Assembly (NCBI GenBank): GCA_963665275.2
Contig: CAXXIN010000017.1
Coordinates: forward strand, 64,001-128,000
From: Negativicutes bacterium
Lineage (GTDB): Bacteria > Bacillota > Negativicutes > UBA1444
DNA: 64,000 nt
Direction of reading: 5' to 3'
A model generated the notes under the pieces. It was not told where the DNA came from and did no database searches. It was given only the letters and a program-made list of their open reading frames with translations. Positions within the stretch are counted from its first letter, which is position 1. The number at the start of each line of letters is the position of its first letter. Shown one piece after another: positions 31,223 to 63,284 of this stretch. The position numbers and the translations under genes are program-made.

Positions 31223-31248
31223 TATTAAACACTCCTCATTTTATTATA

Positions 31249-31268: not shown

Positions 31269-31286
31269 CCAGCTTAAAAAACCTTC

Positions 31287-44615: not shown

Positions 44616-44636
44616 TTATTGTGGTCACCTTTCAGC

Positions 44637-45518: not shown

Positions 45519-45526
45519 ACTAGCTC

Positions 45527-46486: not shown

Positions 46487-46589
46487 ACATAATATTGTTC
46501 GTCATGGCGCAACAAATTCCTACCCCTTCCAAAAGAATAACGCATCTCCACAGGAGCATCTACCTTATACATACAGCTCAATTTTAAAA

Positions 46590-46619
46590 AATGGAGGGTC
46601 GGCCCCGCCGCCCCTCCAC
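46590..46619 (-). terminator. Probable intrinsic terminator after mrp
   Basis: TGGAGGG...CCCTCCA hairpin followed by TTTTT on the minus strand. Confidence 0.6.
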
Positions 46620-46673
46620 TGATACATTACTTCTTCACTTGCGTTCGAATTCAGGTGTCAGGATATCAACACC

Positions 46674-47888
46674 TTATTCCCCACATTCATCATGGTGCTG
46701 ATGTTCATGACAGACAGAACCAGTAGACTGCAGCATGCCTTTCAAATATTGCTCGGCTGCGACCTTCGCCGGTCCCATCGCTCCGACAATTACTTCAATA
46801 CCCTTTTCGTTGAAAATTTCGATTGCGCCGGCGCCCATGCCGCCTGAAATAATCACATTGACCCCCATGTCGTTCAAGAAGTTGGGCAGAAATCCTGGCT
46901 TATGTCCCGGATTCGGCACGGACTCACTCTTAACAATCTGCGCGTTTTCAGCTTCATAAATATTGAAATTTACACAATGCCCAAAATGCTCTGTTACCAT
47001 TTCATTTTCACTTGCTACTGCAATTTTCATTTTCTTTCCTCCATTTTTTCCTACTATTTTTTCTGTTTCCAACATTTCAGCGATCCGGTCAAACCAATTT
47101 CCTTCAAAGAATTCAATCATTCCTTTATCACAGGCTACTGCAAGTTTAGGATCGATTGGCATGCTGGCCAAAATATCGAGATTATGTGTCTGGGCGATTT
47201 TTTCAATATTGCTGTCGCCGAATATTTTGTATTCCTTATCGCAGTCCGGGCATTTGAAATACGCCATATTTTCAACCAACCCGATGATTGGTATATTCAT
47301 CATCTTTGCCATTTTAACCGCTTTGGATACAATCATTGAAACCAATTCTTGCGGTGAAGTCACAATGATGATTCCATCGACTTTTATTGACTGGAATACA
47401 GTGAGCGGAACATCTCCTGTGCCCGGCGGCATATCAATAAACATAAAGTCGATATTATGCCATATTACGTCCGTCCAAAACTGTTTGACTGTATTGGCAA
47501 TGATCGGTCCTCGCCACACTACAGGATCTGTATCATTTTCCAAAAGCAAATTAATTGACATAATATCAATACCCGTTTTGCTTTTAATAGGATAAAGGCC
47601 AAGTTCATTTCCAGTAGCCTTTTTGCTTATACCAAAGGCTTTAGGTATGGATGGTCCTGTCACATCCGCATCCAAAACAGCAACCTTATGGCCTCTTCTA
47701 TTCATTGTTACTGCAAGCATGGAGGTTACCAACGATTTACCAACCCCGCCTTTGCCGCTTACAATACCGATTACTTTTTTAATGCTACTTAGTTCATGCG
47801 GTTTTTCGGAAAAATCGACATTGGGTTCCTTCCTCTCATCACAGTCGTCACCGCAGGAGCTGCAAGTTTGATTACAATTTTCGCTCAT
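46674..47888 (-). CDS. Mrp/NBP35 Fe-S carrier ATPase fused to a NifB/NifX domain (MrpORP-like)
   Basis: N-terminal Cys cluster, GKGGVGKS, DMPPGTGD, CPDC; C-terminal MKIAVA..HFGHC..GGMG. Confidence 0.9.
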   Translation of the reverse strand: MSENCNQTCSSCGDDCDERKEPNVDFSEKPHELSSIKKVIGIVSGKGGVGKSLVTSMLAVTMNRRGHKVAVLDADVTGPSIPKAFGISKKATGNELGLYPIKSKTGIDIMSINLLLENDTDPVVWRGPIIANTVKQFWTDVIWHNIDFMFIDMPPGTGDVPLTVFQSIKVDGIIIVTSPQELVSMIVSKAVKMAKMMNIPIIGLVENMAYFKCPDCDKEYKIFGDSNIEKIAQTHNLDILASMPIDPKLAVACDKGMIEFFEGNWFDRIAEMLETEKIVGKNGGKKMKIAVASENEMVTEHFGHCVNFNIYEAENAQIVKSESVPNPGHKPGFLPNFLNDMGVNVIISGGMGAGAIEIFNEKGIEVIVGAMGPAKVAAEQYLKGMLQSTGSVCHEHQHHDECGE

Positions 47889-47983
47889 TCATTACTCTCC
47901 TATCATATTTTATTATCATACGCTTGGCGTATAACGTTCACTAAATAATATTTTAGCATCTGGTCAAAGACATCTATTGCCGC

Positions 47984-48340
47984 CTATTTATGGAATCCGG
48001 CATGAATCTCATCAAGCAGGAAGAGTTTTCCGTCAATAAAGGCATTAATATTATCCTTTATCGAATCGTTGATCGTCTTGTATATTTTGATATTGGCAGC
48101 TTTAAATACCTCTGCGGCATTCTCGCCGCATCTCGGGGTAATCAATGCGGTAACATTGCTATCTACAACTGCCTGAGCTGCTTTGATTCCGGCGCCACCC
48201 TGGCTGGCTGCTGCGCTATTATCAAGGAAAATAGGTTCCTTCGATTCCGTATCAAAAATCAAAAAATAGGGTGTGCGTCCAAACGAGATGCATACATTCG
48301 CTTCCATAGAATTCCCATCCACAGGTATTGCAATTTTCAT
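47984..48340 (-). CDS. NifB/NifX-family (ORP-like) protein
   Basis: MKIAIP, FGRTPYF, GGAGIKAAQ, CGENA. Confidence 0.9.
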   Translation of the reverse strand: MKIAIPVDGNSMEANVCISFGRTPYFLIFDTESKEPIFLDNSAAASQGGAGIKAAQAVVDSNVTALITPRCGENAAEVFKAANIKIYKTINDSIKDNINAFIDGKLFLLDEIHAGFHK

Positions 48341-48355
48341 TAGTCTTTATCCTCC

Positions 48356-48730
48356 TCAGCTATCTTCTATCATCTGTATCTGTCTACCGCATTGATGCCT
48401 TCGACACCCGCCACCACCACATGATTCCGCTCGCCCATCACAAAGCTTGTAATCTCCGCCCTCAATTCTCAGCACTTTCCCGTTCACGAGTGACTCAGCA
48501 ATTTTCTTTCTTGCACCAATATAAATTCCTTGAACAGTCGTACGGGCGATATTCATTTGATTGGCGCATTCTTCCTGATTAAACCCTTCTAAATCAATCA
48601 GGCGTATGGTTTCATATTCATCCACAGTCATCGTTATACAATGATCGGGGCTCATCGGAGCGTTAAGCGGACCGAATCGGTTGCTCTCCGGCAAGTTACA
48701 TACTTTTCGCCATTTTCTCGGTCTTGCCAT
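48356..48730 (-). CDS. DUF134 (UPF0251) HTH protein
   Basis: [37 protein letters not shown], Cys-rich tail. Confidence 0.9.
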
Positions 48731-48814
48731 TGCAAACTCACCTCATATGATCAATATAAGGAACAAGGGAGTGTTACCCCTTGCTCCATCAGTAAATGCA
48801 AAACCGGAACATAC

Positions 48815-48872
48815 TTATCGACATATGTCGCTATTACATTTATTATACTTCGTTTTCGTCATATGTCAATAA
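48815..48872 (-). promoter_or_regulatory. Promoter TTGACA-16-TATAAT with two 20-bp CATATG-centred operators
   Basis: TTATCGACATATGTCGCTAT (48815) and TTTTCGTCATATGTCAATAA (48853). Confidence 0.75.
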
Positions 48873-48964
48873 TAACAATGCGTTTGTCGGCGGGGCTTTT
48901 GCTTTATACTCACACTCTTTCGTAAATACCCCCAAAAAGCATAGCGACAAAAACGCCCCCAAAA

Positions 48965-49912
48965 CTATTGATTTTCCTGCGGAAACAACCCGGGTTCAAC
49001 CTGTGAAAGTCCTGCACAAAGCGATATGATCTTGAAGCCTTCTGCCATGAGAGGTGCTGTGGTCATCGCTGCCAATTGCCCACTCTTGCAACACAGCACT
49101 AATCTTTTTTCTTTTGGCAGATTCGGTATCCGATTTTTCAGTTCATCGAGCGGTGCGCTGATAGCGCCCCTAATATGCCCTTTTGCATAATCATCACGAG
49201 GTCTGAGGTCGACAAACGCATATTTATCCGGTGATCCCGCTAAAAGTTCTTTGACTTCCGAATTGGCCACTACAAGTGTTTTAACCGCGTGTTGTCTGGC
49301 GATCATGAGCAGATTCGCCTGGATACCGTGCAAAACCGCAACCACCTTCGGATCATGCGGCGGCTCATTTTTAACTGGATAAAAAGAATTTCCGCTTGAT
49401 TCCATGGTGAATCTTGCTTTTTCCATCAGCGAGAACCCACCACTGACAAAAATCGCCTGGTAACCGAATGCTTTTAGCGGCACCATCGCCAACGCCGAAC
49501 TTTGCCCCGTATAACAGTACAACAGCAAGATTTTATTGGGGGGAAGGTTGCCGAGGTTTTCCGCCAGTCCGACAAGAGTCATATTGATCGCACCCCTGAT
49601 GTGTCGCTGCGCATAATGCTCCGGCGATCGTAGGTCAATGACCAAATAGGAGGTTTCGTTTCCATCAAGTTGTTCTTTTGCCATAGCTGGATCGATAGGA
49701 AACTTGCTGTCACTGACTTCTTTTAATATTTTCCCATACGCGTCCCACGTGGCCTGCCGTATTTCCGATGTAAAATTGGAGCCGGTCGTTTGCACAACCT
49801 TAGGATTCGACGCAGCAGGCATATTGGGCTGCAACCCACATCCACCGCAGGAAAAAACGAATACGATAATCAAAAACATAATCGACCAAGAAACCCAACG
49901 TGCATTTGCCAC
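48965..49912 (-). CDS. Tandem-rhodanese lipoprotein
   Basis: Cys-containing lipoprotein signal; two domains DLR..HIRGA..CYTGQ and DLR..GHIRGA..CKSGQ. Confidence 0.85.
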   Translation of the reverse strand: MANARWVSWSIMFLIIVFVFSCGGCGLQPNMPAASNPKVVQTTGSNFTSEIRQATWDAYGKILKEVSDSKFPIDPAMAKEQLDGNETSYLVIDLRSPEHYAQRHIRGAINMTLVGLAENLGNLPPNKILLLYCYTGQSSALAMVPLKAFGYQAIFVSGGFSLMEKARFTMESSGNSFYPVKNEPPHDPKVVAVLHGIQANLLMIARQHAVKTLVVANSEVKELLAGSPDKYAFVDLRPRDDYAKGHIRGAISAPLDELKNRIPNLPKEKRLVLCCKSGQLAAMTTAPLMAEGFKIISLCAGLSQVEPGLFPQENQ

Positions 49913-50031
49913 CCGTATCCCCTCCTTTGAAATTTATGGGAGAATTTCGACTGACTGCGTTTCTTCCAATATTCTTGCGACCAATACAGAATCAACCTCT
50001 CAAAATACCGTGCAGTACCCCTTGTGCCGAC

Positions 50032-50421
50032 CTATTTTGCCAACTCGTGCGCACCATAATAATTCTCAATCGCATTTTTCAATGCCGTTGCGCCCAGTAC
50101 GGAACAATGCAGTTTGTGTTCAGGCAACCCGTCCAGTGCTTTCACAATATCCTGATCGGTTATTTGGATGGCTTCGTCCAGAGTTTTCCCTTTAGCCAGT
50201 TCCGTTGCCATGCTGCTTGACGCAACCGCTGCCACGCAACCATCGACTAAAAAACTGATATCCGCAATCACATTGTCCTTGACCTTGATAAAAATAGCTA
50301 AAAAATCGCCGCAACCAGGTTCTCCACAAATACCCATCGAATCGGCGTCAGGCATATCTCCTAGATTTTGCGGACTCATGAAATGTTCGATTACTTTATC
50401 CGAGAATGCAGCACAAAACAT
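50032..50421 (-). CDS. IscU/NifU-N Fe-S scaffold protein
   Basis: VIEHFMSPQN, CGD, GC, KLHCS. Confidence 0.9.
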   Translation of the reverse strand: MFCAAFSDKVIEHFMSPQNLGDMPDADSMGICGEPGCGDFLAIFIKVKDNVIADISFLVDGCVAAVASSSMATELAKGKTLDEAIQITDQDIVKALDGLPEHKLHCSVLGATALKNAIENYYGAHELAK

Positions 50422-50477
50422 AAAATCACTCCCTACTTTATTATTAAATTACCTATTGTTTTTTGTCTTTCTGCAGC

Positions 50478-50531
50478 TTATGATCATATGACCATAAAAA
50501 CTCTAGGATCATTTTGAGCTTATGTCAATAT
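50478..50531 (-). promoter_or_regulatory. Promoter TTGACA-17-TAGAGT with two 20-bp operators
   Basis: TTATGATCATATGACCATAA (50478) and TTTTGAGCTTATGTCAATAT (50512). Confidence 0.75.
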
Positions 50532-50545
50532 TCATTAATAAGTTA

Positions 50546-50614
50546 TTGACAGATATGCCAAAACAAAATACTATATATTCGTATCAACAACTTATTTGAT
50601 ACAACATATAGTGT
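50546..50614 (+). promoter_or_regulatory. nrdD promoter (TTGACA-17-TACTAT) with two NrdR boxes 31 bp apart
   Basis: ATACTATATATTCGTA (50568) and ATACAACATATAGTGT (50599), versus consensus acaCwAtATaTwGtgt. Confidence 0.82.
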
Positions 50615-50649
50615 TTTTTAATGAAATTATTTTTGAAAGGATGTTGGCA

Positions 50650-52737
50650 ATGCTGCAGCAAATCATCAAAAGAAATCACTCACATGTTCCTTTTCGCAAA
50701 GAAAAAATCATTTTTGCCATTTTTAAAGCCGCTAACGCTGTTGGCGGAACTGATTTTTCCTTGGCAGAAAAGCTGACAGATCAAGTCGTCGCTTGTGCAG
50801 AACAAAAATACCCTGATGGGATAGCTGACGTCGAGGGCATCCAGGATCTCGTTGAAAAAGTTCTCATCGAGGCAGGCCACGCCAAAACAGCCAAGGCCTA
50901 TATCCTGTACCGGGAAAAGCGGCGTTCCGCGCGTGAATCAAACGCACTGATCGGCGCAACCATCAATATGTTCAGCGAATATCTGAATGACAAGGATTGG
51001 CAGATCAATGAAAATGCCAATACCCAAAAGTCCATCAATGGATTGAACAATTATGTGCGAGAAGCGTTCACCCAAAACTACTGGTTACATGAAATTTATC
51101 CAGATGAAATCCGCAATGCCCATTTGTCGGGTGATATCCATATCCACGACTTGGGCTTCTTCGGTCCGTACTGCGCTGGGTGGGATCTCCAGCAAATTTT
51201 ACGAAATGGTTTTGGCGGCGTACCGGGAAAAGTAGAATCCAAACCGCCTAAACATCTCCGTTCTTTTCTGGGACAAATTGTAAACTCCACCTTCACCACA
51301 CAGGGTGAAAGCGCCGGTGCACAAGCCTGGTCCTCTTTCGACACCTATTGCGCTCCATTTATCCGCTATGACAACCTGGACTACAAAACAGTTCGGCAAG
51401 CACTTCAAGAATTCATCTTCAATCTGAATGTTCCCACCCGCGTGGGGTTTCAATGCCCATTTTCCAATCTAACCTTCGATATCGTTCCGCCACGCACGCT
51501 AAAGACTGAACACGTTATTCTTGGCGGACAATACCAGTCAGAAACATACGGAGATTTCCAGCCAGAAATGGATATGCTTAATCTGGCCTTCTGCGATGTG
51601 ATGATGAGCGGTGATTCCAAGGGTCGGGTATTCACATTTCCAATCCCAACCATCAATGTGACCAAAGATTTCGACTGGAACAGCCCCGTAGTAGATAAAT
51701 TCATGGAAATCACCTGCAAATATGGCATCCCGTATTTCTCCAACTACGTCAACTCCGATTTGTCTCCTGAAGACGCCTTGTCAATGTGCTGTCGTCTCCG
51801 ACTGGATACCAAAGAACTGCGAAAACGGGGCGGCGGTCTATTCGGTTCCAACCCCCTGACCGGTTCCATCGGCGTCGTCACGATTAACTTACCCAGACTT
51901 GCTTATATTTCGAAAAGTGAATCGGAGTTCTTCGCACGATTGTGGCAACAGATGAACATTACCGCGAACAGCTTGGAAATCAAACGCAAAGTCATTGAAG
52001 AACAAACAGCTAAAGGGCTGTATCCATATTCGGCAAATTACCTGAAAGCAATCAAAGAAAAAACCGGTCTGTATTGGTTCAACCATTTCAACACCATTGG
52101 CCTCATTGGCATGAATGAAGCCTGCCAAAATCTGTTCGGCGTTGCTTGCGACCTTACCACTCGGCCGGGCCAGCAATTTGCGATAAAAACTCTAAACTAT
52201 ATGCGCAAGGAAATTAAAGAAATCCAGGACAAAACCGGACACTATTATAATCTGGAGGCAACACCGGCCGAAGGAACCAGTTATCGACTCGCAAAAAAAG
52301 ATACGGAACGCTTCGCCGACATCATCACCGCTGGCGAAAAGTTTCCCTTCTACACCAACTCATCGCAACTTCCAGTTGGATTCACGGACGATATTTTCGA
52401 AACCCTGGACCTGCAGGATGAACTGCAATCTCTATATACCGGCGGCACAGTTCTGCATCTCTATCTGGGCGAAGAAATCAAAGATCGATCTATTGCCAAG
52501 CGGTTGATACAAAAAATATTTACACGTTATAAACTGCCTTATATTTCCCTAACGCCCACGTTCTCAGTCTGCAACGATCATGGTTACCTTGCGGGGGAAC
52601 AGCCGACCTGCCCGGAATGCGGCGCTCCGACAGAAATTTGGAGCCGCGTTGTCGGCTATCTGCGCCCGATTCAGAATTACAACAAAGGCAAGCGGGAAGA
52701 GTACGCCCAACGAAAAAAATACGTGATTAACGAGTAA
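50650..52737 (+). CDS. nrdD: Anaerobic class III ribonucleoside-triphosphate reductase
   Basis: ATP cone, HIHDL..YC, TFPIPT, SMCCRL, EATPAEG, C-terminal CxxH..CPEC and glycyl-radical SRVVGY. Confidence 0.96.
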   Translation: MLQQIIKRNHSHVPFRKEKIIFAIFKAANAVGGTDFSLAEKLTDQVVACAEQKYPDGIADVEGIQDLVEKVLIEAGHAKTAKAYILYREKRRSARESNALIGATINMFSEYLNDKDWQINENANTQKSINGLNNYVREAFTQNYWLHEIYPDEIRNAHLSGDIHIHDLGFFGPYCAGWDLQQILRNGFGGVPGKVESKPPKHLRSFLGQIVNSTFTTQGESAGAQAWSSFDTYCAPFIRYDNLDYKTVRQALQEFIFNLNVPTRVGFQCPFSNLTFDIVPPRTLKTEHVILGGQYQSETYGDFQPEMDMLNLAFCDVMMSGDSKGRVFTFPIPTINVTKDFDWNSPVVDKFMEITCKYGIPYFSNYVNSDLSPEDALSMCCRLRLDTKELRKRGGGLFGSNPLTGSIGVVTINLPRLAYISKSESEFFARLWQQMNITANSLEIKRKVIEEQTAKGLYPYSANYLKAIKEKTGLYWFNHFNTIGLIGMNEACQNLFGVACDLTTRPGQQFAIKTLNYMRKEIKEIQDKTGHYYNLEATPAEGTSYRLAKKDTERFADIITAGEKFPFYTNSSQLPVGFTDDIFETLDLQDELQSLYTGGTVLHLYLGEEIKDRSIAKRLIQKIFTRYKLPYISLTPTFSVCNDHGYLAGEQPTCPECGAPTEIWSRVVGYLRPIQNYNKGKREEYAQRKKYVINE

Positions 52738-52743
52738 TCGGCT

Positions 52744-53430
52744 ATGTTAATTGCCGGACTGGTTAAAAGCTCACTCATCGATTATCCCGGACTGATTTCC
52801 TGTGTGCTGTTCACACCGGGCTGCAACTATAGCTGCTTTTATTGTCACAACCGATCACTGATTGATGGAAGTCATGAATTACTCAATCTGCACGAGATTC
52901 AAACTTTTCTCGCCCAACGAATCGGCTTATTGGACGGAGTTGTCATAACTGGCGGAGAACCGACTCTCCAACCCGATTTACCATCCTATATCGCATCTCT
53001 CAAACAACTGGGTTTCAAAGTCAAACTGGATACGAACGGCTCTTCGCCAGATATTATCAAGCATTTACTGGAAGCCGGTTCCTGTGACTATTATGCCGTT
53101 GACTTCAAAGCGCCGCCGCAACGGTACCATGAAATCTGCGGCGACCGCGCTAATCCTGCGAATGTTTTCAGAACTATCAGCCTGCTATTGCAATACAAAG
53201 TTGATTTTGAAGTCAGAACCACCGTACTGCCCCAATTTAGCGATATCGATCTAATCCACATGGCAGAATTGTTGCCGGTCGTTCCTCGTTATCGCTTGAA
53301 TCGGTATCGAAAACCGGAGAAATATCTAATCAGTGATCAACTCCGAGTCAATGATCCGCCTTACTCACAAGATAAAATAAATTCTCTGGCTGCTACAATC
53401 CAATGCTTGCAGCCAAACATAATAGCGTAA
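52744..53430 (+). CDS. nrdG: Anaerobic RNR activating radical SAM enzyme
   Basis: SLIDYPG, GCNYSCFYCHN, TGGEPT, KLDTNG; follows nrdD. Confidence 0.92.
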   Translation: MLIAGLVKSSLIDYPGLISCVLFTPGCNYSCFYCHNRSLIDGSHELLNLHEIQTFLAQRIGLLDGVVITGGEPTLQPDLPSYIASLKQLGFKVKLDTNGSSPDIIKHLLEAGSCDYYAVDFKAPPQRYHEICGDRANPANVFRTISLLLQYKVDFEVRTTVLPQFSDIDLIHMAELLPVVPRYRLNRYRKPEKYLISDQLRVNDPPYSQDKINSLAATIQCLQPNIIA

Positions 53431-53433
53431 ATG

Positions 53434-53464
53434 AATCAACCACTCAGAAAACGGGTGGTTGATT
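53434..53464. terminator. Bidirectional terminator between convergent genes
   Basis: AATCAACCACTC-loop-GGGTGGTTGATT. Confidence 0.7.
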
Positions 53465-53468
53465 TCAG

Positions 53469-53942
53469 TTACGCTTCTGTTCGGCCATGACGCCAACAGT
53501 TACGCCTACAAAATCTTCCTTGGGAAGCTTTCTCACAGGCAACTTTAAGCGAGCCGCAGGCAGGGCAAGTATATTCACCGTTTTTTATTGACTCCAGATT
53601 CTCAAAACTTTCCATCCAAATTTTACCGCAATCCATACATTTTACCGCACAAATATTACGCGTAAAATTGCCACCTTCAACATTTATAGCTTTTCCATTA
53701 ATCAAACTGTCGGCAATTTTTTCTCGTGCTGAAATTAGGATACGCTGAAAAGTCGGCCGTGATACCTCCATTTTTTCGGCGCACTCGCCTTGCTCCAAAC
53801 CCTCTAAATCTTTAAGACGGATAGCTTCCAATTCTTCCATTTTTAAAGTGTTTTTCGGCCCCTCTAGCTCTTTTTCGGAGGGAATAAAATTGAGAACGGA
53901 AGGAACGTTCTCAATTTTTCTCCACTTAATCGGTCTTGCCAA
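53469..53942 (-). CDS. DUF134 HTH protein with zinc ribbon
   Basis: MARPIKWR, EELEAIRLKD, MEVSRPTFQRIL, VEGG, CMDC..CPACG. Confidence 0.9.
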   Translation of the reverse strand: MARPIKWRKIENVPSVLNFIPSEKELEGPKNTLKMEELEAIRLKDLEGLEQGECAEKMEVSRPTFQRILISAREKIADSLINGKAINVEGGNFTRNICAVKCMDCGKIWMESFENLESIKNGEYTCPACGSLKVACEKASQGRFCRRNCWRHGRTEA

Positions 53943-54270
53943 AACTATCAGCTCCGTTTGGTTTGTTTGTTTTTAATCTATTAATTTCTTCTTCCACCTC
54001 CCGAGCACCTTCTCCATAAAACTTTTCTTCATCTGGAGCTATTTCTTTCAACAACCTGAGAAATTCTCCCGCATGAACTCTTTCTTCGTCAGCTATATCC
54101 TGTAATACTTCAATTGCCAATTCATTGTCCGTGGATTCGGCCAACTGCATATATAACTGGATGGCTTCATATTCGGCGGAAATCATGAACCTGATGGCTC
54201 TGATCAACTCTTGTTGAGTCAACTTGCGCTCTTTAGCCAGCCCGGAAAACGGATTCCCAAAATCAGGCAT
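53926..54270 (-). CDS. Small ferritin/rubrerythrin-like protein
   Basis: AEYEAIQLY and DEERVHAGEF di-iron motifs. Confidence 0.85.
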   Translation of the reverse strand: MPDFGNPFSGLAKERKLTQQELIRAIRFMISAEYEAIQLYMQLAESTDNELAIEVLQDIADEERVHAGEFLRLLKEIAPDEEKFYGEGAREVEEEINRLKTNKPNGADSFGKTD

Positions 54271-54318
54271 CGTAGTTCCCCTCTCTAAATTTTATTGATT
54301 GAGCTTTCATTATCGAAA

Positions 54319-54810
54319 TCAAATAAAGTCGATAGCCGAAAAATCAATATTTCCCTTATCGTCAACCAATTGTTGATCGGCATGGACGTACTCGATTTTA
54401 CCGATAAACATCTCGTGGGATCCAGTTACAATCGAATCAACGATCGTGCATTCAATATTCACCGGACAATCCAGCAGAATCGGCGCATTGATCTTCTTAC
54501 CGTCGGCGAGTTTCACCTTCGCATCTGCCAATTTATCCCCGTCGCGTTTACTATGACTGCCCAAATAAGCAAACGTTTCCTGATTCTTTTTATCGACCAG
54601 ATTTACGACGAAGCATCCTGACTCCTTAATCATTTGATACGAATACCGAGTCGGCACAATACCGACCATCACCATGGGTGGACTATAACTGCAATTCCCA
54701 CAATACGCGACGGCCAGCACATTGTTTTCGCCATTTAAACCGCGGCAAGACACCAACACTTTGGGCAGAGGTTGAAGACACGATTTCATATTAGCTGAAC
54801 TTTTCTCCAT
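54319..54810 (-). CDS. Flavin reductase-like protein (flavoredoxin)
   Basis: PLPKVLVS, SPPMV, RYSY, CPVNIEC, GSHEMFIG. Confidence 0.88.
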   Translation of the reverse strand: MEKSSANMKSCLQPLPKVLVSCRGLNGENNVLAVAYCGNCSYSPPMVMVGIVPTRYSYQMIKESGCFVVNLVDKKNQETFAYLGSHSKRDGDKLADAKVKLADGKKINAPILLDCPVNIECTIVDSIVTGSHEMFIGKIEYVHADQQLVDDKGNIDFSAIDFI

Positions 54811-54857
54811 TTTATTCAACTCCTAGATAATAAACTGGGTTCATCTGCATTTTTTTC

Positions 54858-55733
54858 CTATGCGTTCTGACCGGCTGTAACTAGCATTCGAAGTGTTTTG
54901 GCATATACGTCTTTTGCGGCGCTACCTGCCGAGCAATCCATATCAACAATGGTCCGACCTTGATTGACCGCTTCCACAACCTTGGGATCAAAGGGAATTT
55001 TACCGACGAAAGGTAAATCAAATTTTTGGCAATACGAGACGATCTCCTCGGTTTTCACAAAGTTGGTATTATACTTGTTGATACACACGGCGACTTTGGT
55101 TTGAAACCCTTTGGCAGTTTTAATAATACGCTCCATATCACTGATACCGGATACCGAAGGTTCCGCAACAATCAGGACCATATCCACACCGCTAAGAGAA
55201 GCAATGACAGGGCAACCGATGCCTGGTGAACCGTCAATGATAGCGACTTCGGCGTCTTCGCCTGCTGATTTCATCTGCTTCTTTACTTCCGTGACCAACA
55301 TACCGGAGGTTCCACTGCCCATCTTGAGCTGCGCCGTGGAAAACACCGCATCATCCACATAAAGCATCAGCTCTCCAGCGACCGCAGCCTTGAGCGTTAT
55401 GGCGCCAACCGGGCAAATCTTTTCACACACGCCGCAGCCTTCGCATGCGTACTCATCCACCGTATAATGGTAGTCTGCGTCAATAGCATCAAACCGGCAG
55501 TTTCGCCGACACAAATCACACTTCAAGCACAAGTCTGGATTGATTTCCGCCTTTGGCAATCCGAAATAATCAGATCGTTGCGGTGACGTGGTCTGGTTCA
55601 TGACCAAATGCAAGTTAGGCGCATCCACGTCGCAATCCGCATAGGCCTTGGCTTTTGACAACTTAATAAAAGCCCCCGCAATCGTCGTTTTCCCTGTGCC
55701 GCCTTTGCCGCTAAGAATTAACAACTGTTTCAC
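54858..55733 (-). CDS. MinD/CobQ-like P-loop ATPase with inserted 2x[4Fe-4S] domain
   Basis: SGKGGTGKT, DCDVDAPN, CxxCxxCxxxC twice, DGSPGIGC. Confidence 0.9.
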   Translation of the reverse strand: MKQLLILSGKGGTGKTTIAGAFIKLSKAKAYADCDVDAPNLHLVMNQTTSPQRSDYFGLPKAEINPDLCLKCDLCRRNCRFDAIDADYHYTVDEYACEGCGVCEKICPVGAITLKAAVAGELMLYVDDAVFSTAQLKMGSGTSGMLVTEVKKQMKSAGEDAEVAIIDGSPGIGCPVIASLSGVDMVLIVAEPSVSGISDMERIIKTAKGFQTKVAVCINKYNTNFVKTEEIVSYCQKFDLPFVGKIPFDPKVVEAVNQGRTIVDMDCSAGSAAKDVYAKTLRMLVTAGQNA

Positions 55734-56568
55734 GCCGCACCTCCTTGGTCACAATTTGAAGCAGGGCAGAGAACAACTCCCGATATTTCGGATGTTCTCT
55801 TACCAAAATGCGCGCATTGGAATTCAGCGTTCCGATCTCGGTATCAAAAGGGATTCTGCCCAATATTTTGATATTCTTATCGATACAGAAAAGTTCAGCA
55901 GGATTGTCCCCTTCCAGGCACTTGTTTAGTATCGCGCCGTGCGGTTTATCAAAAAGCTTAACCAACTCATAAACCATGTTAAAATTATGAACGCCAAACA
56001 AGGTCGGCTCCCCAACCAATATGCAATAATCCGCATCTTTGATGCTTTCCATGACAATACAGGCACTCCCTGGCGGGCAATCAATAAACGTGATTTCCTT
56101 TCCACCCGAAGGGGTATCGAGGAGCTTCTTGATAATTGGAATTCCAGAAGCTTCACCGGTATTCAATATGCCTGTAATGACAGAAACGTTTTCCGATGTC
56201 CCGCTTTGAATCTCTCCAATGATTTTGTCTTTCTCCGACAGGGCTTTGACGGGGCAAAACAGTATGCAACCTCCACAGGAATGGCATATTGTTTCAAAAA
56301 TCTTCAATTGTTTATTAATATAGGCTAGTGCATTGAATTTGCAAAAATCAACGCACATGCGGCAGCCATTGCAAAGGGTTTCATCGACAACCGGAATCTT
56401 GACCGAAATTTTTTCCGACGTAATATCTTTTGGCTTGAAAAAAAGGTGCCCATTTGGTTCTTCCACGTCACAATCGATATAGACAGCTTCATCAGCTGCT
56501 GCCGCCAGATTAACGGATAAAAGTGTTTTTCCTGTACCGCCCTTGCCGCTCAAAACGGCGATCTTCAT
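55711..56568 (-). CDS. MinD/CobQ-like P-loop ATPase with inserted [4Fe-4S] domain
   Basis: SGKGGTGKT, DCDVEEPN, CNGCRMC, CHSCGGC, DCPPGSAC. Confidence 0.9.
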   Translation of the reverse strand: MKIAVLSGKGGTGKTLLSVNLAAAADEAVYIDCDVEEPNGHLFFKPKDITSEKISVKIPVVDETLCNGCRMCVDFCKFNALAYINKQLKIFETICHSCGGCILFCPVKALSEKDKIIGEIQSGTSENVSVITGILNTGEASGIPIIKKLLDTPSGGKEITFIDCPPGSACIVMESIKDADYCILVGEPTLFGVHNFNMVYELVKLFDKPHGAILNKCLEGDNPAELFCIDKNIKILGRIPFDTEIGTLNSNARILVREHPKYRELFSALLQIVTKEVRRETVVNS

Positions 56569-56939
56569 TTTATTTTCCCCCCATGATTATGAAATCCAGC
56601 ATGGATATCTTCGAGTAAAGACAGCTTCCCAGCATTGAAAGCAATGATATTGTCCATAATGGAATCATTCATCGTTTTATACATTTTCAGATTGGCGGTC
56701 TTGATTACGGATGCGGCATTATCGCCACATTGGGGAACCAGCAACGCAACAGCACCACTATCCACAACGGCTTGCGCCGCCTTAATCCCGGCGCCACCTT
56801 GACTGGCTGCAGCACTGTTGTCGAAAAAAGCGCTTGTTTGTGCTTCGGTGTCATAAATAAGAAAATATGGGGTGCGCCCAAACGATGAGGCAACTGTTGA
56901 TTCCAGGGATTTGTTGTTGACCGGAATTGCAATTTTCAT
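56565..56939 (-). CDS. NifB/NifX-family (ORP-like) protein, close paralog of 47984-48340
   Basis: FGRTPYF and SAAASQGGAGIKAAQAVVDS are shared with the paralog. Confidence 0.9.
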   Translation of the reverse strand: MKIAIPVNNKSLESTVASSFGRTPYFLIYDTEAQTSAFFDNSAAASQGGAGIKAAQAVVDSGAVALLVPQCGDNAASVIKTANLKMYKTMNDSIMDNIIAFNAGKLSLLEDIHAGFHNHGGKIK

Positions 56940-56961
56940 AGTATATCCCCCTTCAATTTTG

Positions 56962-57210
56962 TTATTCCCTTACCATAGCTGAACCGCATTGCGGACATTG
57001 AACCGAACTACAGGCCTGGGCGCGTTGATGCGGCACTTTGGCGCCACACTGCGGACATACGCAAAAGCCTACCGGACCGGCGCCAATAGATCCGCCCACC
57101 GAGGCTCCACTGCTATTCGCCTGATTACCAATACCCCGCCCCATGCCTCGTCTCCTTCCTCCGCCACCGCCCGAACCCACGGGTCCTGTTCCATCTCTTC
57201 GCGGCATATT
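56962..57210 (-). CDS. Small DUF5320-like Gly/Arg-rich protein with Cys-rich C-terminus
   Basis: MPRRDGTGP; CVCPQCG..H..C...CPQCG. Confidence 0.8.
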   Translation of the reverse strand, partial: NMPRRDGTGPVGSGGGGGRRRGMGRGIGNQANSSGASVGGSIGAGPVGFCVCPQCGAKVPHQRAQACSSVQCPQCGSAMVRE

Positions 57211-57272
57211 CAGCACCTCCCCTCAATTTTAAGAAATCAATTTTTCAAATTGCCTTTCAATTTTCATTGCCG

Positions 57273-57323
57273 TTATGTTCTTATGCTCATAACTATAATG
57301 TTATTATGGATATATGTCAATTT
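57273..57323 (-). promoter_or_regulatory. Promoter TTGACA-17-TATAGT with two 20-bp operators
   Basis: TTATGTTCTTATGCTCATAA (57273) and TTATGGATATATGTCAATTT (57304). Confidence 0.75.
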
Positions 57324-57337
57324 GTTTAGCATTCAAA

Positions 57338-58297
57338 TCAGGCTTTCCCGCGATCATCTTGTATGTTTTTTCGGTAGAATTTTTTTCCTTCATACCAGAA
57401 CTCCAACAGTTTCCCACACGCCACGAGCGCTTCAACATCACTCGGGTCCTCTTCCTGCTTTTTCAGCATTTCATCGACAATCTCCGCCCTCAATGGATGC
57501 ACAGCAGTGATGCCCAATAGATCCTCGACAACGTTTCCCGTGAAGAAGAAACCGTCTTCCCGTTCATCTCCGGTAATCCATTCCACTGGCACACCCGCCA
57601 ATCGGCGAATCAAACGAGCCGCTTCAAGCAACTTTTGATTCGAAGCTCGCTCAACATTCGGTTCCGCTGGTGGACGAGTCGGAACCAGCACGTATGCCTT
57701 TTCCGGTTTTATGATCGCCAGTTGCCCGGCAAGTTTTATAAGATCTTCCGTCGCATCATTCACCCCATCCACAAGCATAGTTTCTGTCACTAGCGAACCC
57801 TTAAACAGCTTGGCGAATTCTCCTATCCCATCGAGAATTTGTTGAATATTTAAAGTGCCATGGGGACGATCAATTTCACGCCAAATCTTCTCATCCACCG
57901 CATCAATTTTCACCGATACCCAGTCAGCCCTCAACAAATCCTTTCTAACATCATCCTTCCATAACAGAGAAGCATTGGTGATCACGGCGATTTTTACATT
58001 CAACCGCTTTAACAAAGCAATTTCTGTTCCGAGATTGATATCCAGCGTAGGTTCCCCATCAGGAACAAACGACAAATAATCAACAAACTTTCCGCTTGTT
58101 TCCACTTGTTTTAGTTTCTGTTCGACCTCAAGGAAAATTTCTTCCGGTGAATAAAATTCACGTCGTACAATCTGCATTTTATCGGTTCTGCCCAGTTGAC
58201 AATAGCAGCAGGAGTAGGAACAGGTCTTGGGGGGAATATGATTGATCCCCAGACTTTGCCCCAGCCTTCGTGACGGTACCGGCCCATAAATGATCAT
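57338..58297 (-). CDS. Radical SAM protein (COG0731-like)
   Basis: YGPVPSRRLGQSLGIN, CSYSCCYCQ, DGEPTL, ITNASL. Confidence 0.88.
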   Translation of the reverse strand: MIIYGPVPSRRLGQSLGINHIPPKTCSYSCCYCQLGRTDKMQIVRREFYSPEEIFLEVEQKLKQVETSGKFVDYLSFVPDGEPTLDINLGTEIALLKRLNVKIAVITNASLLWKDDVRKDLLRADWVSVKIDAVDEKIWREIDRPHGTLNIQQILDGIGEFAKLFKGSLVTETMLVDGVNDATEDLIKLAGQLAIIKPEKAYVLVPTRPPAEPNVERASNQKLLEAARLIRRLAGVPVEWITGDEREDGFFFTGNVVEDLLGITAVHPLRAEIVDEMLKKQEEDPSDVEALVACGKLLEFWYEGKKFYRKNIQDDRGKA

Positions 58298-58303
58298 GTG
58301 GTT

Positions 58304-58780
58304 TCACCTGCTTTCAAGAACGCAGGGCTCTCCTTCAGGAACGATTTTATCAATAAACAGTATTCCCTCCAAATGATCAATTTCGTGACAAAAAGCGCGA
58401 GCTGTTAATCCCGTTCCGGTAATTTCAACAAATTCGCCATGTTCATTGAGCGCCTGAACAACCACTATTTCGGGTCGTTTCACCATCCCGTACCTTCCTG
58501 GAATACTTAGACAGCCTTCCGAATCCAACTGTTCGCCTACCGTTTCAACTATTACAGGATTCACCAGTTTGATTAAGCCATCTCCGACGTCAACGATAAC
58601 CACCCTTTTCAGGACCCCAATCTGTGGAGCCGCCAATCCAACCCCTGACGAAAAATACATGGTGTCCACCATATCTTGCAATAACGATAGGATTTCGGCA
58701 TCTACTTTTTCTACAGGTCGTGCCTTGCCACGCAATACAGTATCCTGCCAGAGATGTTTCATAATTTCGCGAAGTGCCAT
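58304..58780 (-). CDS. def: Peptide deformylase
   Basis: GVGLAAPQIG, EGCLS, HEIDHLEG. Confidence 0.95.
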   Translation of the reverse strand: MALREIMKHLWQDTVLRGKARPVEKVDAEILSLLQDMVDTMYFSSGVGLAAPQIGVLKRVVIVDVGDGLIKLVNPVIVETVGEQLDSEGCLSIPGRYGMVKRPEIVVVQALNEHGEFVEITGTGLTARAFCHEIDHLEGILFIDKIVPEGEPCVLESR

Positions 58781-58810
58781 ATACTTCTCTCCACATTCAA
58801 TAATAGTCAT

Positions 58811-58843
58811 GGAAAGACAGGTGGTTAAACCACCTGTCTTTCC
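58811..58843. terminator. Perfect inverted repeat between DUF5320 and def (terminator or attenuator)
   Basis: GGAAAGACAGGTGGT-TAA-ACCACCTGTCTTTCC. Confidence 0.65.
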
Positions 58844-58858
58844 AAACGTCGAAGGCTT

Positions 58859-59182
58859 TTACTCAGCATTTGAAGAAATACTTTCCAAACGCCGTTTCAC
58901 TTGTTGCAACTGCATTTCCAAAAAATTCATTTGATTGGTCAACAACTCTTTTTCATTACCAACGGGATCATTTACACCAGCGTATGGCTGAGTCATAAAT
59001 CGGTTTCGCGCCTGTAAGCCAGCTCCACGCATCATTCCACCAGTACCACGCCGGCAACCAAAGCCACCAAACATACCTGGAGTGTTCATTGCGCCCGGCA
59101 CAGCAAACCCTGAACAAAAACCGGCGCCACGCCCTGTCTTTGAACCCATTCCCATCGGACCGGTTCCATCTCCTCTTGGCAT
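58859..59182 (-). CDS. DUF5320-family protein
   Basis: MPRGDGTGPMG..TGRGAGFC, C-terminal coiled coil. Confidence 0.85.
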   Translation of the reverse strand: MPRGDGTGPMGMGSKTGRGAGFCSGFAVPGAMNTPGMFGGFGCRRGTGGMMRGAGLQARNRFMTQPYAGVNDPVGNEKELLTNQMNFLEMQLQQVKRRLESISSNAE

Positions 59183-59237
59183 ATTTTTTCACTCCTTAAT
59201 TATTTTTTCGGCATCATACGATTTCGATTCGGCACCG

Positions 59238-59291
59238 TTATTGTCATATGCCCATAATTATAGTAACTCAGTTACGGATATATGTCAACAA
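59238..59291 (-). promoter_or_regulatory. Promoter TTGACA-17-TACTAT with two 20-bp operators
   Basis: TTATTGTCATATGCCCATAA (59238) and TTACGGATATATGTCAACAA (59272). Confidence 0.75.
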
Positions 59292-59396
59292 CTATTTTTT
59301 TCTCGCTCCCCAGTACGTTTGTACAAATTTGAACTCAGCCTTTTCTTGGCGGTACCGTTTGAAAAGGTAATTGGTTTCACAGCATCGGCAGAGCCA

Positions 59397-59801
59397 TTGA
59401 GAAATATTGCAATAGACATTTTTAAATTGCTATCTGCAATCTTAATTCTCGTGTTTTTCTTGGCAGGCTTCCCTATTTCAAGCGTATGTTTTTCGGAAAT
59501 CCAGCAACATATCACCGAAAAAGACGCGGAGGGAAATGAAATCACGCTTCTGGCGAAATGTGAACCGGACAGAAATGTTCCCCAATGGAGAATTTGTCAT
59601 AAATTCGCCGAGAGCCGTTTGAGCGCTCTGCAGGTGATCGATATTTTGTCCGCCCTTCAGGAAGACTGGTGTGAAAATACTGCCGGTATCTATCTGAAAC
59701 GCAGCTATCAGTTGCCTCACTGCCCATACACACAGATATATAAGAACAAATTTCAACCAAAACAACACTTCTTCGCTCCTGCGCTTCCCCTTTTGGGCTG
59801 A
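59397..59801 (+). CDS. Possible exported hypothetical protein
   Basis: TTG start and a hydrophobic signal-like stretch KLLSAILILVFFLAGF; weak RBS and no recognisable domain. Confidence 0.3.
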   Translation: MRNIAIDIFKLLSAILILVFFLAGFPISSVCFSEIQQHITEKDAEGNEITLLAKCEPDRNVPQWRICHKFAESRLSALQVIDILSALQEDWCENTAGIYLKRSYQLPHCPYTQIYKNKFQPKQHFFAPALPLLG

Positions 59802-59927
59802 ATACCGACAACGCCGACAACTTCAAGTAGCACTTGATCACATCTTCAGCGTAACCGCAATAGGCGCTTTTTTTTGAAGCTTGATACATTTACACATAAA
59901 TATTCTGCTTGATTAAATAGTATTTTA

Positions 59928-59962
59928 TGTTATAATCCTAATATCTTAATATATTAATATTA
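59928..59962 (+). promoter_or_regulatory. Extended -10 (TGTTATAAT) followed by an AT-rich palindrome, probable ArsR operator
   Basis: AATATCTTAATATATTAATATT directly upstream of the arsR-like gene. Confidence 0.5.
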
Positions 59963-59984
59963 TAATTATTGTAGAGGAAGTTTC

Positions 59985-60299
59985 ATGTTGCACATTTATC
60001 GGACAGACCCTGAATTGTTCATAGCTCTGGCAGATACTCTAAAGGCCTTGGCCCATCCCCAAAGGCTTTGCATCGTCAAGACTTTGTGCGAAAAGAAACA
60101 GTCGAATGTAACCGATATGCAAATTTGCCTTGGCGAAGCGCAATCCACTGTTTCCCAACATCTGTCCAAACTGAAATCGGCAAAAATCATTACTGGGAAG
60201 AGAGAAGGAACGACCATCTTCTATTCACTTTATGATGAAAAAACCCGAAAGCTGGTTCAATCACTCCTAAATGAATTCTTCCCGGAAACGAAACCATAA
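59985..60299 (+). CDS. ArsR/SmtB family regulator
   Basis: LKALAHPQRLCIV, QSTVSQHLSKLK, REGTTIFYSL. Confidence 0.9.
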   Translation: MLHIYRTDPELFIALADTLKALAHPQRLCIVKTLCEKKQSNVTDMQICLGEAQSTVSQHLSKLKSAKIITGKREGTTIFYSLYDEKTRKLVQSLLNEFFPETKP

Positions 60300-60338
60300 G
60301 ACCGAAATCTACCAAATTATATGAGGAGGATGAAGTTA

Positions 60339-61712
60339 ATGAAAAAAACGGATCTGTTAGTGATTGGGGGAAGCGCCGGGGGGGTTCTCTCTGCCACAAC
60401 GGCAAGAAAAGCATATGGAAACATCGACATCACCCTGATTCGTGAAACTGAAAATGTCATGGTTCCCTGTGGTATACCTTACATCTATGGAACCTTGCAT
60501 AACACAGACAAAAATGTAATGCCGGATACTGGTCTGATAGATTCAGGCGTTCACATAATTGTCGATCGAGTTACAAGTATTGATCGACATACAAAGACCA
60601 TAACAACGGAAAAAAACGAAACCATCGAATACAAGAAATTAATCCTGGCTACTGGTTCCCTCCCCATTATCCCCACTTTCATTCCTGGACATAATTTGGA
60701 AAATGTGTTTTCTGTTTTGAAAAATCAGGACTACTTGAATTCGCTCCTCGATAAAGTGCAAACCGTTAAAAATGTTACAGTTATTGGCGGTGGTTTTATC
60801 GGAGTTGAGTTCGCAGAGCAGATTTGTTTACTAGGAAAAAATGTTACATTGATTGAATTAGCGGATGCTTGTTTATGGCAAGCTTTTGACCGGACTTTTA
60901 CCGATGACATCGAAGCTTCCTTAAAGGCAAAGGGTATCCATCTCTTGACAGGAACCAAAGTCAAAAAAATTATCGGTACAAACACAGTGGAAGCTGTTGA
61001 ATTAGAGAACGGCGAATTGATTCCGGCGGATTTGGTGATCCTGGGGATGGGAGTCAAACCCAATGCTGCATTGGCAAAAGCTGCAGGTCTCGAATTAAAT
61101 GGCAAAGGAGCCATTGTTGTCGATCAATATACAAGAACTTCCGATCCCAATATTTTTGCCGTTGGCGACTGTGCTGAAAAAAAATGCTTCTTTACCGGAA
61201 AAGATGCCCCGGTTCTTCTGGCGTCAACTGCGGCAATGGAAGCGAAAATCGCGGGCTGCAATGCGTTCCAGTTGAGGCTCATTCGCGCAAACAAAGGAAC
61301 AATCAGTGCATTTTCTACAAAAATATTTGGCAAAACATTTGCCGCTGCCGGCCTTACCGAAGCCAGAACCTCTCAGGAAGGATTCAGTGTCATGGTCGGT
61401 GATTTCACGACCATGGACCGCCACCCCGGTTGTTTGCCGGGCTCACAAAAAACTACCATCAAATTGATCTTTTCCAAGTGCTCTGGCGTCATTCTCGGCG
61501 CACAGATTTCCGGAGGAGACTCAACCGCCGAAATAATCAACATATTGAGTTTGGCTATTCAAAAGGACATGACAGCGACAGAGCTCAACACTTTCCAAGT
61601 GGCAACTCATCCATTAGTCTCGGCCTCACCGGTAGCTTATCCAATTAATGCCGCCGCTATGAATGCCATTGCTCTAAATTGCAGACACTTAAACGAAGGC
61701 TTAATAATCTAA
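60339..61712 (+). CDS. NADH-dependent flavoprotein disulfide reductase (CoADR/NADH oxidase family)
   Basis: GGSAGG, PCGIPY redox Cys, GGGFIGVE, FAVGDC, THP. Confidence 0.9.
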   Translation: MKKTDLLVIGGSAGGVLSATTARKAYGNIDITLIRETENVMVPCGIPYIYGTLHNTDKNVMPDTGLIDSGVHIIVDRVTSIDRHTKTITTEKNETIEYKKLILATGSLPIIPTFIPGHNLENVFSVLKNQDYLNSLLDKVQTVKNVTVIGGGFIGVEFAEQICLLGKNVTLIELADACLWQAFDRTFTDDIEASLKAKGIHLLTGTKVKKIIGTNTVEAVELENGELIPADLVILGMGVKPNAALAKAAGLELNGKGAIVVDQYTRTSDPNIFAVGDCAEKKCFFTGKDAPVLLASTAAMEAKIAGCNAFQLRLIRANKGTISAFSTKIFGKTFAAAGLTEARTSQEGFSVMVGDFTTMDRHPGCLPGSQKTTIKLIFSKCSGVILGAQISGGDSTAEIINILSLAIQKDMTATELNTFQVATHPLVSASPVAYPINAAAMNAIALNCRHLNEGLII

Positions 61713-61754
61713 GCGCCTGTATTGAAGCTAAACAGTAAAAAGCAGCAAAGTCTA

Positions 61755-61972
61755 GTGTGAGAGATCGGCTACTCATTATTTGAGTAGCCGATCTCTTACA
61801 CCACCGTACGTAGCGTTCGGGATACGGCGGTCCAATAACTTGAGTGCAATACCTCGTATCTTTCGGCTATGTCGTCATAACCAATGGACGCGAGGTATTC
61901 GTTTGTTAATGACCGACTCAAGACCCAGCTCCCGGCCAATACTCCAACCGCGTGTTCGCCCATTCTCTGGCA
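61755..61972 (-). mobile_element. 3' remnant of a class C (IIC) group II intron: maturase C-terminus, domain V and altered domain VI
   Basis: AREWANTR...WVLSRSLTNEYLASIGY maturase tail; domain V GGACCGCCGTATCCCGAACGCTACGTACGGTGGTGT at 61833-61798 with a CGC triad. Confidence 0.85.
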
Positions 61973-61974
61973 CT

Positions 61975-62208
61975 TTATAATGTCCCCATGGGTTGAGCAG
62001 CTCCTAAAAATCCCAATACTTTTAGTGCCTCGCGAACAGGAACCCGACTAACACCAAGCATTTGAGCCAAATCTCGCTCCGATGGTAACTAATCCCCGTC
62101 CTTCAAGTTTCCCGTCCCTATCCATTGCCAATATGCTCTACAATCTTCCGGTAGAGCCTCTGTGTCTTCTCTTGCGTTACGATCTATTGGCGTAATGTCT
62201 ACGAACAT
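61975..62208 (-). pseudogene. GntR/FadR-family regulator N-terminal fragment
   Basis: G*LPSERDLAQMLGVSRVPVREALKVL with an in-frame TAG; truncated at the intron remnant. Confidence 0.8.
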
Positions 62209-62235
62209 TTTCCTTCCTTACAACTTTGAAAATTT

Positions 62236-62268
62236 TGAAGGGTATTGGTACTGCCAATACCCTTCAAT
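62236..62268. repeat. Inverted repeat adjacent to the IS left end
   Basis: TTGAAGGGTATTGG-TACTG-CCAATACCCTTCAA. Confidence 0.6.
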
Positions 62269-62270
62269 AG

Positions 62271-63278: not shown

Positions 63279-63284
63279 AGGTGA

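Follow-up and report, generated by a model that had tools for sequence, protein, structure and literature searches.

A 64,000-nucleotide stretch of the genome of a Negativicutes bacterium (C17:64001-128000 of a 3.97-Mb assembly, C17 being contig CAXXIN010000017.1; the whole stretch is referred to here as the window) carries four promoters, P1 to P4, each overlain by two copies of a 20-bp palindrome centred on CATATG. The promoters serve a cluster of orange-protein (ORP)-type and iron-sulfur (Fe-S) genes which also encodes two members of the DUF134 family, DUF134-1 and DUF134-2. From the sequence and its comparison with related genomes, the palindromes are probably the operators of these two proteins, which would act as autoregulating repressors.

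To our knowledge DUF134 (UPF0251) is a large family of small proteins from anaerobic bacteria and archaea to which no function has been assigned. A search of the full-text literature, with subscription journals outside its coverage, returned no paper on the function or DNA target of DUF134, UPF0251, PF02001 or COG1342; in the part of PMC5886521 that names it, UPF0251 is merely an entry in a table of mutations. The operator, its layout over the -35 element and the start site, its subfamily-specific variants and the compact regulon would together provide a testable DNA target for the family. The genes that appear to be regulated are those of a Firmicute orange-protein cluster, along with genes for Fe-S scaffold, sulfur-transfer and peroxide-defence proteins. 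For genes of the orange-protein type the regulator OrpR has been described, from the deltaproteobacteria (PMC8359166); knowledge of a regulator and its signal elsewhere would help in learning the purpose of the enigmatic ORP-type machinery.

Paired palindromes over the promoters of one cluster

The exact pattern TTATNNNCATATGNNNATAA occurs twice in the window, at 50478 and 59238, against 0.00 occurrences expected from 100 shuffles. When up to 3 mismatches are allowed there are eight matches against 2.28 expected, a number reached by 2 of the 100 shuffles; they start at 48815, 48853, 50478, 50512, 57273, 57304, 59238 and 59272. The eight matches form four pairs with centre-to-centre distances of 38, 34, 31 and 34 bp at P1 to P4 respectively, all on the minus strand. 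An earlier sequence-only reading had described four minus-strand TTGACA promoters with two palindromes each, 31-38 bp apart, and this description was borne out.

A consensus scan of the minus strand of 44000-60500 gives P1 to P4 as the best sigma-70-like promoters (12, 11, 10 and 10 of 12 respectively), all with TTGACA and spacers of 16-17 nt. Each upstream copy of the palindrome includes the perfect TTGACA -35 hexamer, and each downstream copy begins 0-7 nt past the -10, over the predicted start site. At P1 the upstream copy, which holds the -35 TTGACA, is at 48853..48872 and the downstream copy, with a CGACATATGTCG core, is at 48815..48834, 7 nt past the -10 and over the predicted start. The upstream copies of P2 (50512..50531), P3 (57304..57323) and P4 (59272..59291) likewise lie over the -35. 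The downstream copies of P2 (50478..50497) and P4 (59238..59257) match TTATNNNCATATGNNNATAA perfectly, and that of P3 (57273..57292) has one half of the TGAGCAT type. Among six sequencing runs listed, those labelled RNA contain 0.07-0.12 of the sampled words, as contigs, from which start sites cannot be shown.

The site is confined to this cluster. A symmetrised matrix was built from the eight window sites and used to scan the genome; the ten best scores all fall within C17:112815-131233 (18.4 kb), where they make up five pairs, and these score 20.4-28.8 compared to 18.6 for the next best single match genome-wide. The fifth pair, P5, is at C17:131180 and 131214, 3.2 kb beyond the end of the window. 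A less circular matrix, built from the sites of other genomes only, gave 13 matches of at least 13 bits in this genome; nine of these, including the top seven, are sites of the cluster. P5 precedes a near-identical DUF5320 paralogue and is therefore a duplicate of P4. DUF5320 genes also follow P3, P4 and the corresponding promoter of another genome, G005, and the four promoters look like copies of one ancestral DUF5320 promoter.

Co-occurrence of the site with DUF134 genes

If the palindromes are operators of DUF134 proteins, the two should be found together in other genomes, a check named with the original proposal. Upstream of DUF134-1 orthologues (45-82% identity; 40 relatives) a TGACATATGTCA-type match is present at 12 of 13 loci, and at nine of the 13 the site is paired, at a distance of 37-40 bp (22 bp in L017); at loci with more distant DUF134 genes such a match was seen in only 1 of 16. 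A strict paired pattern, GACATATG-N24-34-CATATGTC, was searched over 301 genomes of the class, with DUF134 taken as present where a match had an E value of 1e-8 or better. The pattern occurs in 41 of the 301 genomes and a reversed control pattern in 4. It is found in 41 of the 178 genomes with a DUF134 match and in none of the 123 without one, and the expected co-occurrence is thus seen.

Two of the 41 (G208 and G212) are GC-rich hairpins, not operators, and were set aside. Of the remaining 39 matches, 33 lie within 1 kb upstream of a DUF134 gene, nearly all of them with a TATAAT-like box between the two copies. Six lie elsewhere: four precede NifX-like genes, one of these sites being shared with a divergent peroxiredoxin gene, and a fifth stands between P-type ATPase and TelA-type genes. 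NifX-like genes occur in 193 of the 301 genomes, and at least 26 genomes have them without a DUF134 match, none of which has the pattern. Two genomes, G077 and G097, are at least 99% complete and belong to genera that mostly bear the pattern, and neither has a DUF134 gene above the family cut-off. Upstream of their NifX-like genes there is no CATATG in one and a decayed remnant in the other, with no intact site in either. Across about 20 genera the sites are kept at the same promoter positions while the flanks diverge.

In many genomes, from two large families of the class, DUF134 and the Nitro_FeMo-Co (NifX-like) domain are encoded in one frame of ~245-355 amino acids (aa). The fusion was verified on L053 with Pfam and on L017, L019 and L054 from the alignment, and the paired site lies directly upstream of the fusion genes. 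Since the fusion is so frequent, the NifX-like domain may be a sensor domain of a kind new among transcription factors.

Alignment separates at least four types of DUF134 protein. Type A, to which DUF134-1 belongs, has the recognition helix ARTTVQ, conserved Cys11, Cys55 and Cys100, a C-terminal CxxxxC tail and the site TTGACATATGTCAA. The type of DUF134-2 has the helix SRPTFQR and a zinc-ribbon-like tail, with only one close orthologue, in G005 (74%). A 168-aa type, related to DUF134-2 and with the same SRPTFQR helix, has one near-perfect TGRGCATATGCYCA (AAtTGRGCATATGCYCAAtT), ~60 bp before the start codon, at 18 of 20 loci. In a 140-aa type the helix is SRPTFHR, and TGAAATATATTTCA-type or TTATGAAATATATTTCATAA-like palindromes lie 20-40 bp upstream at 7 of 17 loci. 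The frame of the palindrome is constant across types, while its inner flank varies with the recognition helix, as direct binding by DUF134 predicts. It is also clear that the two paralogues of the cluster, at first treated as equivalents, belong to different subfamilies with different recognition helices.

A proposed DUF134 dimer on each palindrome and its alternatives

The AlphaFold model of DUF134-1 has a mean predicted local distance difference test score (pLDDT) of 79.7, with residues 105-124 of the tail below 50. It comprises short strands at the N terminus, a helix-turn-helix of three helices, a long helix spanning residues 63-83, and a hairpin. Foldseek against the PDB matched the helix-turn-helix only, over 45-49 residues with a root-mean-square deviation (rmsd) of 0.5-0.9 Å and E values of 0.086 or worse, and gave no full-length fold match at E 0.001 or better. 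The matches are to region 4 of extracytoplasmic function (ECF) sigma factors, some of them bound to -35 DNA, and to the DNA-binding domain of DeoR. In a wide structural search the best Z score was 7.5, a middling value in the range common for chance arrangements; the DeoR match had a Z of 5.4 and an rmsd of 1.1 Å. DeoR was also found at the sequence level: the DUF134 family profile A1 matched the DeoR entries 7BHY (E 2e-6) and 8R7Y (E 4.5e-5) over 38 residues, and a single-sequence search of the PDB sequences returned DeoR only, at E 0.13. In Pfam, DUF134-2 has weak sigma region-4 matches only and none to region 2. No SorC-type or sugar-phosphate effector domain was found by Pfam in either DUF134 protein (124 and 157 aa); DUF134 is therefore not a member of SorC/DeoR, though its DNA binding may be similar.

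Prediction of a DUF134-1 homodimer gave a score of 0.60 compared to 0.00 for the best control, a mark which is reached by 20 of 30 solved same-chain pairs and by 1 of 23 solved single chains. At least 95% of contacts agree between runs, the pLDDT of the partner is at least 67, and the predicted interface is formed by residues 14-24, 39-47 and 74-89. The model supports the presence of a DUF134 dimer on each palindrome.

On this basis one dimer would occupy each 20-bp palindrome through a sigma-region-4/DeoR-type helix-turn-helix. A dimer on the upstream copy would cover the -35 hexamer, a half-site in its own right (TTGACAT|ATGTCAA), and a dimer on the downstream copy would cover the start site, so that RNA polymerase would be shut out; sites at -35 and +1 fit repression. 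The regulon would be local, with five promoters in 18.4 kb, and would include both DUF134 genes, which would thus control themselves. At P1 and P3 a conserved palindromic site does lie over the core promoter of an operon that encodes a DUF134 protein. The other members would be NifX-like proteins, MinD/4Fe-4S ATPases, MrpORP, DUF5320, an IscU-like scaffold, a rhodanese, a radical SAM protein and, encoded beyond the end of the window, a probable selenocysteine peroxiredoxin. As to the earlier proposal that DUF134 is the cognate autoregulator of the sites, every comparative test agrees with it; its repressor part is consistent with the positions of the sites.

Derepression would follow from the state of a metal or Fe-S centre, which either the conserved cysteines or the NifX-like domain would hold. 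A signal of this kind is suggested by the character of the regulon together with the conserved cysteines and the fusions to the NifX-like domain. IscR, SufR and RirA are Fe-S- or metal-sensing repressors with Rrf2 or ArsR-type winged helices, in which cluster or metal status is read by a Cys-ligated centre and the genes of Fe-S handling, the repressor's own among them, are controlled accordingly. By analogy the logic of DUF134 would be alike, although the folds differ. It is possible, but in our view doubtful, that this extends to the family as a whole: DUF134 proteins would then be widespread metallocluster-sensing factors, dimeric mimics of sigma region 4 that vie with the housekeeping sigma factor for TTGACA, with an affinity set by a Cys-ligated centre or a cluster-loaded NifX-like domain. 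If so, expression of the ORP-type machinery would be tied to cluster supply or oxidative damage.

Two of the systems most like this one have been described. B. subtilis DeoR, of the DeoR subclass of the SorC family, acts on the operator of dra-nupC-pdp (PDB 7BHY, 8R7Y; PMC11229326) and is a repressor that binds two palindromic half-operators near the promoter as a tetramer, a dimer of dimers (PMC11229326). Among solved structures it comes closest to the DNA-binding part of DUF134, and its two half-operators may parallel the paired sites. It differs in its operator, TTGAA...TTCAA, and in having a sugar-phosphate effector domain of ~250 aa. In place of that domain DUF134 has a strand at the N terminus and a long dimer helix, together with a NifX-like domain or a short tail that is Cys-rich or resembles a zinc ribbon. 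The paired sites may work as in DeoR, as two half-operators with a tetramer; the range of spacings, 31-40 bp, fits two independently placed dimers at least as well.

OrpR of Desulfovibrio vulgaris controls the operons of the orange protein complex (orp) and is described as a sigma-54 enhancer-binding activator with a PAS domain, restricted to the deltaproteobacteria, which senses redox via a 4Fe-4S cluster (PMC8359166). The kinds of gene controlled are the same (NifX-like, MinD-type Fe-S ATPases, MrpORP), the regulon is again small and local, and a redox 4Fe-4S signal is of the kind that we infer for DUF134. However, the promoters here are of the sigma-70 type and the candidate regulator is an unrelated small helix-turn-helix protein, by the position of its sites a repressor. 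Sigma-54 promoters for the cluster were considered and rejected: the -24/-12 pattern is not enriched (31 matches against 38 expected). For the locus itself the claimed absence of a sigma-54 activator was confirmed: no Sigma54_activat match was found in C17:100000-140000 and the nearest strong ones on this contig lie over 70 kb off, though the genome has ~31 in total.

A third parallel is with region 4 of ECF sigma factors on -35 DNA (PDB 2H27, 6JHE). Their helix-turn-helix was matched to that of DUF134 at the middling scores given above (Z up to 7.5), and the half-site of subfamily A is the -35 consensus, TTGACA. In contrast to these sigma factors, DUF134 (124-157 aa) lacks region 2, is predicted to be a dimer and has palindromic sites.

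Several observations weigh against DUF134 as the repressor that binds the palindromes. The structural matches span only ~45-65 residues at middling scores, and the -35 consensus alone accounts in part for the upstream copies. The counts given above come from related genomes, which are not independent of each other, and so overstate significance; they describe a pattern and are no formal test. Of 96 genomes with a close relative of DUF134-1, 57 lack the strict pattern, although this would be expected because the pattern is narrow. Given the apparent shared ancestry of P3, P4 and P5, there are about three independent promoter lineages in this genome rather than five. Finally, the operators of ArsR/SmtB proteins are AT-rich palindromes of similar shape, a CadC-like locus at C16:214996 scores 17.4 with the TGRGCATATGCYCA matrix, and an ArsR gene (59985-60299) lies ~700 bp from P4.

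These last points favour an explanation in which another factor, either an ArsR/SmtB-type metal sensor or an unlinked global regulator, binds the sites and DUF134 is merely one of the regulated genes. ArsR-type regulators are common, and the inverted repeats of the CadC type also lie over the promoter. Those operators are, however, bound by adjacently encoded HTH_5 proteins, and neither DUF134 protein has an HTH_5 match in Pfam. The promoter of the ArsR gene near P4 bears an AT palindrome of another sequence (59930-59965) and no CATATG site, and the site-bearing operons of other genomes contain no ArsR gene. The absence of the paired pattern from all 123 genomes without DUF134, and a site variant that tracks the DUF134 subfamily, also speak for DUF134 itself as the binding protein, and we regard control by another factor as quite unlikely. 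Equally improbable, in our view, is that DUF134 binds the sites as an activator or dual regulator and not as a simple repressor. Its fold does resemble sigma region 4 and the LuxR/GerE-type activator domains, and the single site of the 168-aa subfamily lies ~60 bp upstream of the start codon. Yet here and in the 39 pairs found class-wide one copy is over the -35 and the other just past a TATAAT-like -10, the classical occlusion layout, and since P1 to P4 already have a consensus -35 and a near-consensus -10 an activator should be needless. It is scarcely credible that the palindromes are not protein operators at all but by-products of duplicated promoters, RNA or DNA hairpins, or CATATG restriction sites. 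P4 and P5 are clear duplicates and the downstream copies are transcribed, but the upstream copies are not, a loopless palindrome would be a poor RNA element, an Rfam scan of 44000-64000 found no family at threshold, and the sites are maintained among diverging flanks across genera.

Alternatively, both paralogues need not be involved: DUF134-1 alone could bind all ten sites, DUF134-2 having a different target or none. All of the ten sites but the downstream copy of P3 score at least 13.6 with a subfamily-A matrix built from other genomes, as would be expected if this were so. On the other hand, the downstream copies of P3, P4 and P5 each have one half that scores ~12 bits with the SRPTFQR-type matrix, whereas both P1 sites consist of pure type-A halves and are negative with it. 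Furthermore G005, which has no subfamily A, retains a paired site, likewise of mixed kind, ahead of the matching operon, which ends in its DUF134-2 orthologue. Binding of all ten sites by DUF134-1 alone is therefore unlikely. Halves of the TGRGCAT type, present at P2 to P5, likely fit DUF134-2, and the pure subfamily-A halves of P1 fit DUF134-1. This is suggestive of control of P1 by DUF134-1 and of at least P3 to P5 by DUF134-2, with overlap possible; a firm assignment of each site to one paralogue was dropped, as the half-site scores are suggestive only.

Genes behind the promoters and neighbouring features

All of the genes behind P1 to P4 are on the minus strand. The first behind P1 is that of DUF134-1 (48356..48730, 124 aa), followed after a gap of 15 bp by a NifX-like (Nitro_FeMo-Co) protein, which stands alone here (47984..48340), and lastly by an MrpORP-type Fe-S carrier (46674..47888). 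The latter is a fusion of an Mrp/NBP35 ATPase and a NifX-like domain and matches the NCBIfam equivalog NF041136 at 463.7 bits against a cut-off of 450. The P2 operon (48965..50421) encodes a NifU/IscU-like scaffold (50032-50421) and a double-rhodanese protein (48965-49912). Seven genes make up the P3 operon (53469..57216): a Cys-rich DUF5320 protein (84 aa), a NifX-like protein, two MinD-type ATPases with 4Fe-4S inserts, a flavin reductase-like protein, an EncB-type ferritin-like protein and DUF134-2 (53469-53942, 157 aa). The P4 operon (57338..59182) encodes a DUF5320 protein (107 aa), a peptide deformylase and a radical SAM protein. DUF134-1 and DUF134-2 score 72.0 and 83.8 bits respectively with PF02001, above the Pfam gathering cut-off of 27 bits; the nearest NCBIfam model is named 'hypothetical protein' and both proteins score below its cut-off.

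The cluster thus contains MrpORP, three stand-alone Nitro_FeMo-Co proteins and two CbiA/Fer4 ATPases with 4Fe-4S inserts, and by gene content it is an orange-protein cluster in its Firmicute form, to which further genes of Fe-S, sulfur and redox function are added. The promoters do not drive the whole of this stretch, as had been supposed. A terminator-like hairpin at ~46585-46615, after mrp, separates the mrp operon from the MoxR/VWA genes; it was read by eye and is absent from the list of the terminator scan. Weaker copies of the palindrome had also been reported at ~47910 and ~47950, before mrp, and at 46496, before a coxD-like gene, and these were not recovered: none reaches 6 bits, a level at which the genome background is ~3.6 matches per 21 kb. 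Just before the MrpORP start codon there is a different, 22-bp palindrome (47913-47934, minus strand; TTATACGC...GCGTATGATAA), which was rejected as a copy of the DUF134 motif since it does not match, and nothing convincing was seen near 46496.

Some further sequence features were noted around the promoters. The minus-strand leader of P1 contains a hairpin with an 11-bp stem (48760-48787) and an extra CATATG (48744-48749) beside the ribosome-binding site of DUF134-1. Divergent from P2 is the plus-strand promoter of nrdD-nrdG (50543-50620), with TTGACA at 50546 and TACTAT at 50569. It carries two other palindromes ~31 bp apart (50568-50584 and 50601-50614), which we take to resemble NrdR boxes, and a degenerate version of the DUF134 motif, longer by one base (10.4 bits), overlaps its -35. 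The ~700 bp between P4 and the ArsR gene (59291-59985) contains overlapping open frames only, with no Rfam match.

Elsewhere in the genome the TGRGCATATGCYCA matrix gave two matches. At C16:214996 (G000; L076 3996-4015) the sequence ATATGAACATATGCTCATAC lies right after the -10 of a gene for a CadC-like ArsR repressor, which is followed by a heavy-metal P-type ATPase gene; it was rejected as a DUF134 site and taken as the operator of that repressor. The second match, at C5:161032, is inside or at the end of a coding region. Remnants of two further DUF134 genes lie on the minus strand at 30997-31621 of the window, adjoining sulfur-transport-like and CoA-disulfide-reductase/rhodanese genes. Of the first, which is of the 140-aa type, a 53-aa piece is left (PF02001, 57.5 bits), with the rest frameshifted behind it; of the second, of the 168-aa type, there is a 69-aa zinc-ribbon tail but no helix-turn-helix. 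No surviving TGRGCATATGCYCA-type site was found on the contig that carries them.

The ferritin-like protein encoded before DUF134-2 in the P3 operon (53926-54270, minus strand, 114 aa) scores above the NCBIfam threshold for encapsulin cargo of the EncB family (99.1 bits against a cut-off of 90). Behind P5 the DUF5320 gene is followed by peroxiredoxin, GntR-type, MOSC and CDF/NifX-fusion genes. The peroxiredoxin gene (L001 3914-4696, minus strand, equivalent to C17:129914-130696) is just outside the window. Its frame is interrupted by one TGA, which stands where the peroxidatic cysteine would be encoded (FTFV-U-PTE), and its product is probably a selenocysteine peroxiredoxin.

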